DNA of 28,433 nt from Candidatus Latescibacterota bacterium. Lineage in GTDB: Bacteria > Latescibacterota > UBA2968 > UBA8231. This document shows, in pieces, positions 2,169 to 28,433 of this stretch. A program made the translations under genes and the position numbers. The notes beneath the pieces were generated by a model. That model had not been told where the DNA came from. It worked only from the letters and a program-made list of their open reading frames with translations, and did not search any database. The DNA is taken from contig CBDETK010000004.1 of assembly GCA_965242865.1 (NCBI GenBank), positions 1 to 28,433 on the forward strand, given 5' to 3'. Positions within the stretch are counted from its first letter, which is position 1; every line of letters begins with the position of its first letter.

Positions 2169-2205
2169 GCATCTCTCACGGGGTGAGTTGGGAGTGGATT
2201 GAAAT
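2169..2205 (+). repeat. Solitary CRISPR-repeat-like unit 1
   Basis: GCATCTCTCACGGGGTGAGTTGGGAGTGGATTGAAAT: stem CTCTCA/TGGGAG plus 3' GTGGATTGAAAT; intergenic. Confidence 0.75.
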
Positions 2206-3394: not shown

Positions 3395-3907
3395 ATGTTG
3401 TTGGATGAAAAGCAGTTGGAGGATTTGAAGCAGGAACAAGCGGAGCACGAGGCGGAGCTGGCTCCGGTACGGGAACGGTTGCTCGAAGCCCGTGCGCAGT
3501 TGGCGGAGGCGTCGGAGGGGATCCGCACCCGTCGGGACATGGAGCCGCGCCGTGCGGCGTTACCCTTTTTGTGTCGGCGCAACGAGTTGGAGTTGGAGTA
3601 TGACCGCGTGAAAGCCCAGTTGGATCGGGTGGCCGTGAAGATCGATCTGGGCAGTAACCCGCATTTGTTCCCTCTCAGGCCGGACGAACCGGAACATTAT
3701 ATGCTCGTTTGGGAGACGACCCTCCACGAGCAGGTGTGGGTGCGGCGCGATGCGCCTATCGACGATCTGCCGCCCACGGTCCGCGAGAGTTTCCGAAATC
3801 GGCTATTAGATGAGGAGCAGAAACGCGAGGCGGCGGAGGGCCGCCCCACCTACCAGGCTACGAACTACTGGGCCGGCGAGGAGGAGGATGACGAAGATGA
3901 AGACTAA
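3395..3907 (+). CDS. Hypothetical protein (N-terminal coiled coil, acidic tail)
   Basis: AAGGAGAGG RBS + ATG 3395; protein-like composition; operon context. Confidence 0.75.
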   Translation: MLLDEKQLEDLKQEQAEHEAELAPVRERLLEARAQLAEASEGIRTRRDMEPRRAALPFLCRRNELELEYDRVKAQLDRVAVKIDLGSNPHLFPLRPDEPEHYMLVWETTLHEQVWVRRDAPIDDLPPTVRESFRNRLLDEEQKREAAEGRPTYQATNYWAGEEEDDEDED

Positions 3908-4292: not shown

Positions 4293-4329
4293 GTATCTCC
4301 CGCGGGCTGAGTCGGGAGTGGATTGAAAC
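4293..4329 (+). repeat. Solitary CRISPR-repeat-like unit 2
   Basis: GTATCTCCCGCGGGCTGAGTCGGGAGTGGATTGAAAC (37 nt); stem CTCCCG/CGGGAG. Confidence 0.8.
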
Positions 4330-5511: not shown

Positions 5512-5584
5512 GTGTCTCCCGCGGGGTGAGTTGGGAGTGGATTGAGTAGTATTTCTCTCCAAATTTTGGAGAGTGGATTGAAAT
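5512..5584 (+). repeat. Two adjacent CRISPR-repeat-like units (3 and 4) of different types
   Basis: GTGTCTCCCGCGGGGTGAGTTGGGAGTGGATTGA (5512-5545) and ATTTCTCTCCAAATTTTGGAGAGTGGATTGAAAT (5551-5584; 8-bp stem CTCTCCAA/TTGGAGAG). Confidence 0.75.
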
Positions 5585-12349: not shown

Positions 12350-12364
12350 GGTAGAGCAAGCCCA

Positions 12365-12539
12365 GTTCTTCCGCGGGCTAAGGCGGAAGTGGATTGAAAC
12401 TGAGGTTACGGAGCCGTCGCTGGCGGTGGCTATCGGTCTCCCCTTGCTTTGGTGAGGGGAGTGGATTGAAACATCATACGATACAGCCCCTCGGGCGCTT
12501 GATCCGGTCTCCCCTTGCTTTGGTGAGGGGAGTGGATTG
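12365..12539 (+). CRISPR. Phage-borne CRISPR mini-array: 3 repeats, 2 spacers, no cas genes in window
   Basis: R1 12365-12400 (GTTCTTCCGCGGGCTAAGGCGGAAGTGGATTGAAAC); spacer 35 nt; R2 12436-12472 (GTCTCCCCTTGCTTTGGTGAGGGGAGTGGATTGAAAC); spacer 34 nt; R3 12507-12539 is identical to the first 33 nt of R2. Confidence 0.9.
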
Positions 12540-12540
12540 C

Positions 12541-12576
12541 CGCCCGTCAACGCTTTTGGTTGGCGGGCGTTTTTTT
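12541..12576 (+). terminator. Rho-independent terminator closing the mini-array
   Basis: CGCCCGTCAAC/GTTGGCGGGCG stem (one G-U pair) followed by a T7 tract. Confidence 0.85.
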
Positions 12577-13075
12577 ATGCCCGCGCCAGCGGCCAGTCAA
12601 ATCGTTTTTCGCTCACCTCGTACATAAAATCCAATCCAATATCGGGGTCGCCCCCGCGCTCCTGCTCGCGCTGCCGCTCCGGTGTCCACACCGCATCCGG
12701 TTCCAACAAATTAAACTTGCGCTTGGAGACTTCCAACAACCACTCGCCGGCCTTATCGACGGTGCTCTGTCCCGCCGTCCCCGTGAAGCGATAGCCGGTG
12801 TCAGCCCATGCGCCGCCATCCGTCCGCGAAAGCAGATAAACCGACACGGTAGCCGGCCCCAAGTCTTCCGGTAGGGTCTGCCGTTGGGCGTCCGAGAGGG
12901 CGATAGCCACCGCCAAGGACGGCTCCGTACCCGCCTCCAGCGTGTGCTGCGGGAAACGGACGTCGAGCAGCCGGCCCCCCCCGCGATACACCTCGCTCTC
13001 AAACGTAATGTTTTGGGGGAACGTCGCCAAGCGTAGGGATGTTCCGATCTTCAAGAGAATAGCCGCGAATTGCAT
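12575..13075 (-). CDS. Minor tail / baseplate hub-like protein (166 aa)
   Basis: Lies between the distal tail and tail-tip genes. 'ITFESEVYRGGG' and C-terminal 'WT.E.Q......D.GLDF......F.W' pattern resembles siphophage hub N-terminal proteins. Confidence 0.7.
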   Translation of the reverse strand: MQFAAILLKIGTSLRLATFPQNITFESEVYRGGGRLLDVRFPQHTLEAGTEPSLAVAIALSDAQRQTLPEDLGPATVSVYLLSRTDGGAWADTGYRFTGTAGQSTVDKAGEWLLEVSKRKFNLLEPDAVWTPERQREQERGGDPDIGLDFMYEVSEKRFDWPLARA

Positions 13076-24857: not shown

Positions 24858-25586
24858 TTAACTCGAAATCTCGACGACCCAATCGTTGATATGACTGGTC
24901 GGCTGCACAGTGAACGACGTTTGCAGGTTGCCCCCGTCCGGCGCATCCGCGCCGGGCTTGCCAAACCGCGCCGCATACCGGACCCGCAGCTTGGGCGTGA
25001 CCACCTTGAAATCGGCATCCGCCGCCACCGACGTGGGCGGAGCCAGCGTGCTGCGGCTGCCATCCGCGCTATACTGAATAATGCCCGTCCCGCCGCTACC
25101 CTTCTCAACAACCCACGGGGTAGCCCCCTTGCCGTCGTCCTGCAGCTCGTCAATGACATACGCTTTCCCGTCAATGATAAGCACCGCACCGCGCCCCACA
25201 TCGTCAAACGGGATGTCAGGCGAACCCACAAGCGTTACAATGCCCGTGCCGGCAATCGCCGCCGTTACGCCGCTCGCACTGTTGTTATCAAAGAACTCAG
25301 CCTGTGCGGTCGTGAACTGAACATTGACCAGGGTCCCCTTGATCGCCGCATCCCGCACAAAACGCCACGCCGGATGAACGGGGTTATAGAGCGACGTAAT
25401 CGTGACGGGCGCGACCTCCGGCAAGTCCGTCGAAGCCAAGCTGTCCTTGAACGTTTGGATGGTCTCACTGTTCAGGTCGCCGCCCCCCTCGCTGTGCGAC
25501 TGCACCCCCGGTAACGACTCATACGTACCACGAATCTGAACGGAAACCTCCGCCCCTTGTACGGGTATGTTGATGCTATCTGCCAT
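24858..25586 (-). CDS. Major tail (tube) protein
   Basis: AGAGGAG RBS, size, synteny after the head-closure gene, downstream terminator and beta-rich tube-like pattern. Confidence 0.75.
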   Translation of the reverse strand: MADSINIPVQGAEVSVQIRGTYESLPGVQSHSEGGGDLNSETIQTFKDSLASTDLPEVAPVTITSLYNPVHPAWRFVRDAAIKGTLVNVQFTTAQAEFFDNNSASGVTAAIAGTGIVTLVGSPDIPFDDVGRGAVLIIDGKAYVIDELQDDGKGATPWVVEKGSGGTGIIQYSADGSRSTLAPPTSVAADADFKVVTPKLRVRYAARFGKPGADAPDGGNLQTSFTVQPTSHINDWVVEISS

Positions 25587-26014: not shown

Positions 26015-26581
26015 CTACAACGCGGCGTGAAGGGGACGCAAGGGCCCCAACAGCCGATCTAACGCACGAAAATCATTCGGCAGGCCCCCGCCGTTGTATA
26101 GCTGCCGCACCAGCAAGACCAACGCCTGCGCCAGCACCGTATCTTTGGGACGACGACCCAGCGTCAACCCGAGGGTCACATTCAGACGCCAGCGCAGATC
26201 CCGAGCATGGGCCGGCCACCCGGCCGGCGGCGCGTTCACGACAACAACATCCGTCGTCGGCGTCACCGTCGTCTCCACATCACCCCAATCATCCGTTTCA
26301 ATCCACTCTCCCTCCGAAGAAGGAGAGAAATACGCGATGCTCTGAAGACTCTTGAACCCTCGCGCCTCAAACACGAGCGCATTCATAGCGCCCATGGGCG
26401 GGTTCGTCGTAAGAACACTCGCCCTATCCACCAGCGGGTAGTCTATGCTTGCCTCGACCCACCCCACCGCCGACGCCAACTGATCCAACAGAAGCGTATC
26501 GTGGTAGGTCTCGTCCACCGCTAAACGCAATTCTAAGCGCAAGCGATCTAACGAGCATATATCGGTAGGCTGAGCGACCAT
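26015..26581 (-). CDS. Head-tail connector (HK97 gp6 / SPP1 gp15-like)
   Basis: 'SLDRLRLELRL......DTLL....SA..WVE' and 'QALVLLVRQLY' motifs. Confidence 0.88.
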   Translation of the reverse strand: MVAQPTDICSLDRLRLELRLAVDETYHDTLLLDQLASAVGWVEASIDYPLVDRASVLTTNPPMGAMNALVFEARGFKSLQSIAYFSPSSEGEWIETDDWGDVETTVTPTTDVVVVNAPPAGWPAHARDLRWRLNVTLGLTLGRRPKDTVLAQALVLLVRQLYNGGGLPNDFRALDRLLGPLRPLHAAL

Positions 26582-26587
26582 AGAGCG

Positions 26588-27001
26588 TTAGGAGCGCGTA
26601 GGCTTAGGCTTGGGACGCTTAGCGTCGCGGGTCTCCACCTCGACGCCCTGCCGACGCGCAAGCTCGACCAATTTTCGTGACGTATCTCGATGCGCCAACA
26701 GACCCACGTCATGGATTCGCAACAAATTAACCAGCATCTCTTCCTCCGTTTCTTGGCGCACCGCCAGACCGCGCGACACCATATCGTCCACCTCAGAGGC
26801 CGGGACCAGCACTAACTGACCGCGCTTATACGGACAGCCCCCCGGGGCCACCCAATGGGTACGAAGGCGCACCCGCTCCAGCGGAATATCCGCCTTGCGC
26901 TTCTCACCCTCCAAGCGGTGCTCCTCCAACTGGGCGATCTCGGCTTGGCGGCGACGCGCTTGCTCGCGAGCCGCCGCCTCCTTCATCGTCATCGTAGGCA
27001 T
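26588..27001 (-). CDS. Hypothetical capsid-adjacent protein (137 aa)
   Basis: GAGGAGAGGGG RBS; 'YKRGQLV.VP......MVSRGLA' motif is seen in small post-capsid phage proteins. Confidence 0.7.
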   Translation of the reverse strand: MPTMTMKEAAAREQARRRQAEIAQLEEHRLEGEKRKADIPLERVRLRTHWVAPGGCPYKRGQLVLVPASEVDDMVSRGLAVRQETEEEMLVNLLRIHDVGLLAHRDTSRKLVELARRQGVEVETRDAKRPKPKPTRS

Positions 27002-27016
27002 ACCCCTCTCCTCTCT

Positions 27017-27137
27017 GTTTCAATCGTTTCAATCCACTCCCGACTTAGCCCTCGGGAGAACGGGGCTTACGCTAAGGCTACTGCGCCTTGATCTTCAACT
27101 TGTTTCAATCCACTCCCGACTTAGCCCTCGGGAGAAC
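27017..27137 (-). CRISPR. Repeat-spacer-repeat unit after the capsid gene, plus a 9-nt repeat remnant
   Basis: Two identical 36-mers GTTCTCCCGAGGGCTAAGTCGGGAGTGGATTGAAAC (- strand; 27102-27137 and 27026-27061) separated by 40 nt; extra GATTGAAAC at 27017-27025. Confidence 0.8.
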
Positions 27138-27153
27138 TGGGCTTACGCCCGCC

Positions 27154-28433
27154 CTACTGCGCCTTGATCTTCAGTTTGACGATCGCCTCACAAACCGCGC
27201 CGTCTTTGACGCCGATATACCGCCCGTCCAAGCGAGCAAACGCAACGACTTTCTCCGAAAAGTTGGACGCCGTGCCGCTATCCCAGAAGCGGAAAAACAG
27301 CATGCCGTTGACCATACGCTCCATGTAATAGCTGCCATTGCCGAAGACCAGCGGGTACGTGTTATCCCCCACGTCATCCATGTTCGGATTCAACTGGTAC
27401 GGATAGCCCAAGATCGTGCCCGGCGTACCATCCCGAAGGCTCGGCAACCAGATCGGATTATCCTGCGTGTCCTTGATCTTCGTCACGGTCTTGAGCGCAT
27501 CGTAACTCATGCCCCAACCAATACGACCCCCTTCCTCGGTCGTAAAGCCGTACATGGGGTCCTCGCGCCCTTCCTTGTACGCCGGATCAATCGCGTAGAC
27601 CATATCAACGATGTCGTCAAAGCCAATCGTGCGCGACGCCGCACTCGTCAGCCCCTCTTTCGCGCCCGTGACCAACCCCTCCGGCTTCGTATCCGCCGCA
27701 CCCGACGCCGTGGTGACCGTCAACTCCTTGTTCTTCAAGCGAGCGATACGCGCCAAGCAGATGTCCTGCATCTCGGGGATACCGCCATTCTCCAAGATGG
27801 TATCCGTCTCAAACTCCATCGTGATCGGGATGAAATCGGACGTATAGGTGTGCGCCTTCAGGACCAGCGTAGTGATGTTCGGCGCATCCACATCGTTGAT
27901 AGCCGAACCCTCCGCCGACAAGCGACGACCCATCTGAGCGGTCGGATCCATCTGCATAATGCGGATGTCTTGCCCGGTCTCTGTAATGCGCGTCCGAACA
28001 AAGCTGCCCCACCCGCCAAAAGCCTTCAGACGGTGTACCAGCCAGTTGGGATACTGAACGGCTATCGACTCTTGCCCCGTAGCCGCATCGCCCGCCACCA
28101 ACCCCACCAGCGGAACGCGCGTTGCCGCCACCACAGGCGCCTTCACAAACAAGGGCGTCGGCGACTTCCACTGCGTGCTCTGCCACCCCTCAAGGTCGCT
28201 CCCATGCAGCTTGTGAAACTCGGCCATGCTCTCTTCAGACGACTGCAACCCCTCGTCCCGAAGACCACCCCCCTGCGACATCTTGCCCGCAAAATAGTTC
28301 TTCCAACGCATACTATCATGCGTTCGCAACGCCATCGGATCGGGCAACCGATTCTCAGGACGCAACCGCTCCAACGCATCCAAGTCGCCGCGCAAGCTGT
28401 CCAACCGACGACCGAGGAACCCGTGCTCGTAGT
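27154..28433 (-). CDS. Major capsid protein, HK97 family (5' end probably beyond the window)
   Basis: 'KPEGL', 'KIKDTQDNPIWLPSLRDGTPGTILGYPY..NPNM', 'LVFGNGS.Y' and 'FARLDG' motifs. Confidence 0.95.
   Translation of the reverse strand, partial: YEHGFLGRRLDSLRGDLDALERLRPENRLPDPMALRTHDSMRWKNYFAGKMSQGGGLRDEGLQSSEESMAEFHKLHGSDLEGWQSTQWKSPTPLFVKAPVVAATRVPLVGLVAGDAATGQESIAVQYPNWLVHRLKAFGGWGSFVRTRITETGQDIRIMQMDPTAQMGRRLSAEGSAINDVDAPNITTLVLKAHTYTSDFIPITMEFETDTILENGGIPEMQDICLARIARLKNKELTVTTASGAADTKPEGLVTGAKEGLTSAASRTIGFDDIVDMVYAIDPAYKEGREDPMYGFTTEEGGRIGWGMSYDALKTVTKIKDTQDNPIWLPSLRDGTPGTILGYPYQLNPNMDDVGDNTYPLVFGNGSYYMERMVNGMLFFRFWDSGTASNFSEKVVAFARLDGRYIGVKDGAVCEAIVKLKIKAQ

Follow-up and report, generated by a model that had tools for sequence, protein, structure and literature searches.

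A type I-C-like CRISPR repeat pair behind the capsid gene of a phage contig binned with a Latescibacterota genome frames a diverged copy of the capsid gene end

The window analysed here is the whole of contig C4 (28,433 nt; CBDETK010000004.1), one of the 13 contigs in the 6-Mb assembly of a Candidatus Latescibacterota bacterium (GCA_965242865.1). On this phage contig, directly behind the major capsid gene, two identical 36-nt repeats (R1 and R2) frame a 40-nt spacer-like segment (S). By sequence and structure, the repeat is a mimic of the type I-C class of CRISPR repeats and a putative substrate of Cas5c. Together with the other mimics on the phage, the pair most likely interferes with or exploits the CRISPR proteins of the host, by which we mean the chromosome contig (C13) of the same assembly. 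S is probably the capsid-end allele of another lineage, and was probably placed by duplication or recombination of a "flank + repeat" unit rather than by Cas1-Cas2. C4 is a mosaic relative (92-99% identical) of two sister contigs, C2 and C11; two related phages have been co-assembled.

The element consists of a 76-nt unit repeated in tandem (27026-27101 and 27102-27177 of the plus strand; 68/76 identity). Read along the minus strand, the HK97-type major capsid gene (27154..28431; PF05065, E=1e-18) begins beyond the contig end, stops with TAG at 27154-27156 and has a 99% identical copy on C11. It is followed by 16 intergenic nt (GGCGGGCGTAAGCCCA), R1 (27102..27137), S (27062..27101), R2 (27026..27061; 36/36 identical to R1) and an extra copy of the repeat's last 9 nt (GATTGAAAC, 27017..27025). 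A further 15 nt with a ribosome-binding site (RBS; AGAGAGGAGAGGGGT) lead to the ATG, at 27001, of the next late gene, which encodes 137 aa with no family match and occupies, with its RBS, 26588..27016. The 40 nt before R1 (27138..27177, hereafter the flank copy) comprise the last 24 nt of the capsid gene, encoding KLKIKAQ*, and the 16 intergenic nt, which end in AAGCCCA; C11 has the same sequence. S is a diverged copy of this flank (32/40), differing at positions 3, 4, 25-29 and 40. Both copies read KLKIKAQ*, and the changes AAA to AAG and CTG to TTG are synonymous. A first-pass annotation, made from the sequence alone, had described the identical repeats and the two matching 40-nt segments, and it is exact in every detail. 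The GTC that it gave as the self 5' flank of the flank copy is likewise correct, and is not the TTC usual for type I-C systems.

The pattern is not a matter of chance. The 40-nt part contains all eight differences between the tandem units, and the 36-nt repeat contains none (P=0.006 if these are eight independent hits, and only P=0.15 if they are counted as three clustered events). Nothing else in the 6-Mb assembly matches S. Taken as a whole, the 206-nt region does not fold with unusual stability (z = -0.95); only the repeat hairpins stand out. We found neither an intrinsic terminator nor a sigma-70 promoter adjoining the element, and no T-run follows the hairpins.

The repeat folds as GTT, a 7-bp stem (CTCCCGA/TCGGGAG), an 8-nt loop and an 11-nt tail (UGGAUUGAAAC; given for R1 as TGGATTGAAAC), and R1 scores 49 bits against the covariance model described below. 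The substrates described for Cas5c have a 7-nt stem and an 11-nt 3' overhang and are cut at the stem's 3' base, and U22-G23-G24 is reported there as the key recognition site for one Cas5c (PMC8524198). The phage repeat shows this hairpin and overhang, with U-G-G straight after the stem and AUUGAAAC at the end of the tail, and the 10-mer AGTGGATTGA is invariant in 15/15 aligned sequences. Scanning one genome per species for array relatives, we found a repeat 33/39 identical in an array of a Clostridiales metagenome-assembled genome (MAG), and one 31/37 identical in an array of a Thiothrix MAG, directly downstream of cas8c, cas7, cas4, cas1c and cas2. Both of these real arrays carry the same stem and tail as the phage repeat. 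With the I-C-like hairpin and tail and these relatives, the first-pass view of the repeats as CRISPR-type is borne out. No Rfam CRISPR-DR family matches at its gathering score; the sole sub-threshold match is CRISPR-DR9, which reaches 28.8 bits on another element (4293-4329), where the cut-off is 45. Chromosomal I-C arrays as described in PMC8524198 share the hairpin, the 11-nt tail and the orientation of the repeat relative to transcription. However, the capsid-side locus has only two repeats, lacks a promoter-bearing leader, lies in a phage late operon and has a spacer of non-canonical length.

The capsid-side pair is one of many such elements on this phage. The 10-mer AGTGGATTGA occurs nine times on C4 (0.054 expected), seven times on C2 and three times on C11; the nine other small contigs have no copy, and the chromosome has it at chance level (12 copies vs 10.7 expected). 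A stem of 6-11 bp ends right before the TGG in 18/19 of these copies, compared with 5.1% of random positions. The covariance model, built from 15 variants that match it by construction, finds 20 elements on C4, C2 and C11, ten of them on C4, with nothing further at E<=1. The stems vary yet stay paired (CTCCCGA/TCGGGAG, CTTCCGC/GCGGAAG, CTCTCC/GGAGAG, CTCCCCT/AGGGGAG and others), while the tail is invariant. Besides the capsid-side pair, the ten C4 elements are two solitary repeats (2169 and 4293), a pair at 5512-5584, an element within a gene at 26295 and the three repeats of an array at 12364-12543. Six of the ten occupy gaps between co-directional genes, in sense orientation and in many cases immediately ahead of an RBS or ATG, and the other four are the three array repeats and the element within a gene.

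The host assigned to the phage has the matching type of CRISPR system. C13 carries a complete type I-C locus (cas3, 5c, 8c, 7, 4, 1 and 2) with a 41-repeat array, in which all spacers (40/40) are 34-37 nt long. It also carries a second system, of type III-D, whose array has 57 repeats. Cas5c is encoded once in the assembly, on the chromosome (C13:3531218-3531805); neither Cas5c nor Cas2 was found outside the chromosome, the other cas families not having been searched on the phage contigs. None of the 40 I-C and none of the 56 III-D host spacers matches C4 or C11. Assignment of C4 to this host rests on binning and on one repeat of the 12364 array (12436-12472), which is 36/37 identical to the host I-C repeat and so ties the phage to the host lineage.

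The sister contig C11 carries a different form of the capsid-side locus. At the same site it has one repeat and no spacer, and the two contigs differ there by a single 85-nt indel (76 + 9 nt), the 9-nt repeat end at 27017..27025 being missing from C11. Their capsid genes differ by 16 substitutions in 1,256 nt (1.3%), with none in the flank copy or the repeat. About 35 nt downstream of R2 lies a divergent patch, with 16 substitutions in 26900-26999 (16%) vs 2 in the next 100 nt, which covers approximately codons 6-30 of the 137-aa gene. S diverges from the flank by 20%. Because duplication within the lineage followed by drift cannot give 20% while the capsid gene stands at 1.3%, S probably derives from a more distant allele. 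The exact flank register, the length of 40 nt (vs 34-37 nt in the host), the GTC flank and the partial repeat after R2 argue that S did not come from Cas1-Cas2.

A second flank copy of this kind is found on C2 (2791-2952). There, a gene end and its 34/38 copy are separated by 13 nt and then two repeats; the matching place on C4 (4728-4765) has no cassette. This copy lacks a closing repeat and runs straight on into the original downstream sequence. Three of its four differences are synonymous third-position changes and one replaces Ile with Leu. Pooled over both loci, 5/6 coding differences are synonymous; a model in which a relic copy takes only neutral changes gives P=0.003 for this, and a mixed model gives P=0.03. 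The sister phages also show a step in identity at both places (98.8% vs 95.4% at the capsid site, and 98.5% vs 96.3% at the C2 site). That the flank-copy geometry recurs on C2 speaks for a joint made by recombination or duplication, and we infer that both loci are overlapping joints of this type between lineages at the repeat cassette. The phage family would then hold two independent joints of such geometry, with overlaps of 40 and 38 nt, about one repeat length. A search for microhomology at the joint gave nothing useful.

These results divide the earlier proposal on the origin of S, which was that a relative's capsid allele had been acquired as a spacer or by recombination, with an old 76-bp tandem duplication as the alternative. 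The foreign allele holds up, given the divergence of 20% vs 1.3% and the synonymous coding differences, whereas canonical acquisition is not supported, given the register, the length, the flank and the C2 geometry. Of the duplication, a duplication step is likely, but drift within the lineage cannot explain the divergence. Canonical acquisition would mean that the host's Cas1-Cas2-Cas4 put a co-infecting relative's prespacer into the solitary repeat, doubling the repeat in the process. Both boundaries of S do coincide exactly with repeat ends, the AAGCCCA before R1 recurs, with all 7 nt, ahead of the first repeat in the 12364-12579 mini-array, and cas1, cas2 and cas4 are present in the host. 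However, the protospacer would by coincidence have been exactly the 40 nt abutting the relative's own repeat. S is also longer than any host I-C spacer, its GTC flank differs from the usual I-C PAM (protospacer-adjacent motif), TTC (PMC8406640), R2 is followed by a surplus 9-nt piece of repeat, and the C2 geometry shows no repeat duplication; we regard this route as very unlikely. To an assembly artefact, in which two strain variants were collapsed or chained into a false tandem, we give almost no credence. The assembly does hold two related phages (C4, and C2 with C11), and short-read contigs do break inside 36-nt repeats. Nevertheless, separately built contigs from three samples hold S with repeat sequence on both sides, and S matches nothing further in the assembly, leaving no second locus for chaining.

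The contigs in question come from four public runs of one study, which hold 55-74% of the sampled words; these are contigs only, and the runs may include the source sample and so are not independent. R2, S and R1 are bridged by contigs of runs X1 (27032-27130, no differences), X3 (27044-27130) and X4 (27059-28433), the last running through the whole capsid gene. They speak against the strain collapse that the first-pass annotation had itself raised as a possible undoing of its reading, with the same reservation about the source sample. One X3 contig is C11-like: it lacks the 9-nt piece at 27017 and has many further differences. An X3 contig leaves the C4 sequence at 27101, with a repeat like the capsid-side one and then sequence that matches the start of gene 24858..25586 at 26/30 letters (25546-25575, minus strand, by manual comparison). 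It may represent a spacer directed at this phage family and carried by a host or by a related phage. Loose contig ends at 27102, 27135 and 27144 were considered as host arrays with the capsid-side repeat and dropped, because they are due to other repeat elements and to mini-array leaders, all from the same phage family, that cross-map there.

We propose that the repeats act as RNA decoys or competitors aimed at the host's Cas5c and Cascade. The ground unit at the capsid site would be the C11 state, a solitary repeat 16 nt after the capsid stop. On C4, the unit "last 40 nt of flank + repeat" would be present twice, its downstream flank being a different lineage's capsid-end allele framed like a spacer. 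The element would be transcribed within the late capsid message; co-transcription with the capsid gene is the simplest assumption, because the repeats are in sense orientation in the late operon and no promoter or terminator of their own was detected. Host Cas5c would recognise each hairpin and its trailing U-G-G, and cleavage at both stem bases would release a 76-nt RNA (11 + 40 + 25 nt) resembling a CRISPR RNA (crRNA). Together with the eight other C4 elements, this RNA would tie up Cas5c, Cas7 and Cas8c in complexes with useless guides and weaken the host's I-C immunity. If the 40-nt segment had any activity as a guide against relatives, this would be incidental. Transcription, cleavage by Cas5c and the decoy effect are the parts of this that we deduce from the anatomy, the I-C class and number of the repeats, the host system and the sister variant, which are observed directly.

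A precedent exists for such a decoy. Solitary repeats of viruses act as RNA anti-CRISPRs (Racrs), among them RacrIC1, whose position is 11 nt downstream of a gene with which it shares a transcript (Camara-Wilpert et al. 2023, PMC10651486). The capsid-side repeats resemble the Racrs described there in being intergenic, co-oriented repeat mimics just downstream of a gene, and the host has a I-C system. On C11 the form is truly solitary, as in that study's single-repeat definition, which the C4 locus falls outside with its repeats 76 nt apart. Unlike the Racrs of that account, C4 has ten elements in 28 kb, with at least six different stems, spacer-less pairs and one in-frame copy inside a gene, and its capsid-side locus consists of two repeats framing 40 nt, with no promoter of its own detected, no acr gene identified nearby (none having been looked for) and a putative anti-CRISPR activity. 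We rank the decoy first because the bare repeat is the ground state, because the mimics are many and include spacer-less pairs, and because of the Racr precedent. It is a tentative first choice, a little more apt to be wrong than right.

Several points weigh against it. The capsid-side repeat is identical to the host repeat in only 27/40 aligned columns, and the first tail position is C in the host repeat (C-G-G in place of U-G-G after the stem) and U in every phage element. Expression late, with the capsid, is odd timing for an anti-CRISPR. Racrs are usually single and have their own promoter, and no sigma-70-like promoter was found by the capsid-side element; the Racr pipeline, as described, would treat a pair of full repeats lying within 100 bp as an array and not as a solitary repeat (PMC10651486). 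The pairing of phage and host is itself qualified: C4 belongs to the host genome by binning and not by an observed integration, so that the assignment leans on the 36/37 repeat match. Finally, a spacer of the kin type in the neighbouring mini-array means that our dismissal of guide activity may be wrong.

This mini-array lies at 12364..12579 on the plus strand. It consists of the leader end AAGCCCA (also the end of the flank copy at the capsid site), a repeat, spacer S1 (12401-12435, 35 nt), a host-like repeat, spacer S2 (12473-12506, 34 nt) and a shortened third repeat, and is closed by an intrinsic terminator (12541-12579). Repeats 2 and 3 are the host I-C repeat with one change (12436-12472 is 36/37 identical). 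S1 has a homologue in the phage's own genome, inside gene 12575..13075 (12901..12935, minus strand; 30/35, with a GGA flank), with mismatches at positions 1, 3, 6, 19 and 20, and it matches the sister contigs at 30-31/35. S2 has no match in the assembly. S1 is thus a diverged copy of a neighbouring phage gene, and kin-type spacers do exist in this phage. The "leader + first repeat" module of this array (C4 12320-12400, plus strand) recurs on C11 (5326-5410, minus strand), in a different location and inverted. The C11 module stands alone, immediately upstream of a gene whose orthologue on C4 (18076-18110, minus strand) has no repeat.

S1 is also an argument for the explanation we rank second, after the decoy: that the capsid-side locus is a working mini-array, whose 76-nt crRNA in the host's I-C Cascade directs Cas3 at co-infecting relatives with the S allele. 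The carrier would be spared by the mismatches at positions 3-4, in the seed, and at 25-29, and selection for superinfection exclusion would keep the spacer. The mini-array at 12364-12579 is bounded by a terminator and its S1 matches the phage's own and sister genes at 30-31/35 with mismatches clustered at positions 1-6. In the cases described for viruses, the genes that mini-arrays are reported to target lie nearby, in close relatives, and the carrier's own copy of the locus is mutated (PMC6858448; PMC11656645). The differences in both S and the C2 flank copy are mostly synonymous, as between alleles of working genes. S lies between two intact repeats and recurs in contigs of runs X1, X3 and X4, and the X3 contig with a similar repeat and the 26/30 match to the start of gene 24858..25586 fits the same picture. 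However, the target allele was not found in the assembly or in the metagenome scan, and the sole visible context has GTC as its flank; a spacer that arose through duplication of the flank never underwent selection for a PAM. At 40 nt it exceeds the 34-37 nt of the host spacers, a closing repeat is lacking in the C2 case, and at the capsid site a bare repeat suffices for the sister phage. All in all, kin targeting seems unlikely. An extension of it concerns how such a guide might arise: solitary phage repeats could be landing pads, where overlapping recombination joints between relatives make kin-discriminating guides without Cas1-Cas2. The joint would leave the other lineage's adjacent gene end directly behind the repeat handle, and the copy left there would be a guide against that lineage, tightly linked to the carrier's immune allele. 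We think this rather improbable. A different function altogether is the processing of phage messages, with the ten elements as Cas5c cut sites in polycistronic transcripts, a protective 3' hairpin left on the capsid mRNA and the doubled unit a neutral variant. RNase III sites in phage T7 are a comparable case of transcript processing. The sense intergenic placement of 6/10 elements, often before an RBS or ATG, agrees with this, as do the structure kept while the stems vary, the lack of a terminator T-run after the hairpins and the place right after the most highly expressed late gene. However, the phage would depend on a non-essential host enzyme found in only some relatives (the model matches 14/75), one element is inside a coding sequence, and one set is a proper array with spacers and a terminator. 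We find mRNA processing more doubtful still than either form of kin targeting.

A regulatory-RNA (Cracr) reading was considered and dropped, as S finds no better match in the host's I-C and III-D loci than a scattered 22/40. In the description of Cracr/crlRNA by Liu et al. (bioRxiv 10.1101/2024.10.29.618823), phage repeat-spacer units, including I-C and multi-unit arrays, load host Cas proteins, to which the capsid-side locus is alike. However, the Cracr spacers described there pair with promoters of host cas or toxin genes over at least 9 PAM-proximal bp. The first 11 nt of S have five exact matches, namely S itself and four chromosomal positions outside both cas loci; the flanks are CAG, CCC, TCA and TCC, none of them TTC.

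The virus mini-arrays described by Medvedeva et al. (2019, PMC6858448) resemble the capsid-side locus in having one spacer between two repeats, a spacer like a neighbouring gene and a mismatched copy in the carrier, with a close relative co-occurring, here in the same assembly. The arrangement R1-S-R2 falls within the range of one to two spacers, and Cas5c and Cas2 were not found outside the chromosome, other cas families not having been searched. In contrast to the arrays of that account, the homologue of S abuts the repeat in register, S is 40 nt long with the non-PAM flank GTC, and no perfectly matching relative was found. The capsid-side repeats are also not the host's (27/40), whereas those at 12364-12579 nearly are. 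Phage mini-arrays were reportedly also the subject of work by Faure et al. in 2019.

The other elements on C4 are found mostly in the early region, in intergenic gaps on the plus strand. Solitary repeats lie at 2169..2205 (44.8 bits) and at 4293..4329, 2 nt upstream of an ATG (52.3 bits), and two different repeats stand head to tail without a spacer at 5512..5584. C2 has further elements in early-region gaps (211-317, 2356-2392, 2842-2914 and 3683-3755), which include spacer-less head-to-tail pairs, and the presence of early-region elements differs between the sister phages. The element at 26295..26330 (minus strand, 41.2 bits) sits in frame inside a head-tail adaptor-like gene (26015..26581); its stem is CTCTCC.../...GGAGAG with the same tail, and it is identical on C11. 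Contigs of all four runs contain go-back joints from 26330 to 26295/26296, with four different inserts of 24-36 nt. These suggest that arrays with a repeat like the one inside this gene exist in those samples; the contigs were placed at 90% likeness, and other organisms are a possible source.

Relatives of the phage appear to be scarce in the collections searched. Among 75 other genomes of the host's family, array-like matches to the covariance model occur in 14, in the same repeat family, and none has dispersed elements of the phage type. In the same 75 genomes we found neither the capsid-side repeat (at up to 3 mismatches), nor the capsid protein, nor the repeat inside the adaptor-like gene (0/75 each). 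A viral contig collection gave no hits to the exact repeat, to a gapped stem and tail pattern, to the capsid protein or to a capsid alignment, and a genome contig collection gave none to the capsid protein. The 19-mer common to both flank copies retrieved 23 stretches from metagenome contigs, all unrelated genes that end alike, with no capsid relative among them. There was no DNA match in the INPHARED phage collection, where the best capsid match is 31% identical. A search of 5.8 billion proteins returned two capsid relatives only (55% and 50% identical) and no relative of the adaptor-like protein. No perfect target for S was found in the assembly, the viral contigs or the 19-mer scan of metagenome contigs, the lineage being almost unsampled; the carrier and the sister contig match S at 32/40.

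In gene content, C4 has, besides the HK97-type capsid and the head-tail adaptor-like gene, a neck protein, a tape measure protein, an endolysin and a DNA methyltransferase, with a head completion protein as a sub-threshold Pfam match. The host's CRISPR loci also show some features of their own. Of the 56 spacers in its III-D array (C13:4796507-4800850), 12 match its own chromosome perfectly over their full length and five more nearly so, one of the 12 matching a multi-copy element; this is extensive self-targeting by a type III system, as judged from the spacer matches. Some 25 kb upstream of this array, two III-D-type repeats stand in isolation (C13:4770824 and 4772270, plus strand). Between the host's cas4 and cas1, a degenerate I-C repeat is followed by a second partial tail copy (C13:3527360-3527396), and a further tail motif lies upstream of cas4 (about C13:3528147). 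These repeat remnants may be crRNA-like regulatory elements of the host. Host I-C spacers 3, 4, 5 and 15 match the small contigs C9, C12 and C6 at 28-33 of 35-36 nt, with mismatches proximal to the handle for spacers 3 and 4 and in the middle or at the far end for 5 and 15. The protospacer flanks there are ATC, ATT, GCC, GCA, ACT and TTT, none of them TTC, and each match on C9 and C12 has a second copy about 10.4-10.5 kb away, as would result if the assembly had joined two copies of a small circular element into a dimer.

Solitary repeats and mini-arrays of viruses are known kinds, shown in the cases described to act as RNA anti-CRISPRs and to exclude related viruses (PMC10651486, PMC6858448, PMC11656645). 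The capsid locus is a variant of these, a one-spacer array whose spacer is probably another lineage's abutting flank, beside a solitary sister form, and comparable phages may already be catalogued. If the elements are inert hairpins, the finding is a curiosity. The dense and varied I-C mimics, ten in 28 kb, suggest broad titration or use of the host's Cas5c. As the solitary and one-spacer forms occupy the same site in co-assembled sisters, the birth of a "spacer" can be read directly, and it looks like a product of recombination or duplication and not of an integrase. Why the spacers of virus mini-arrays target genes near the array has been left open (PMC6858448). The landing-pad view, if true, would explain it, and the locus described here makes the question testable.

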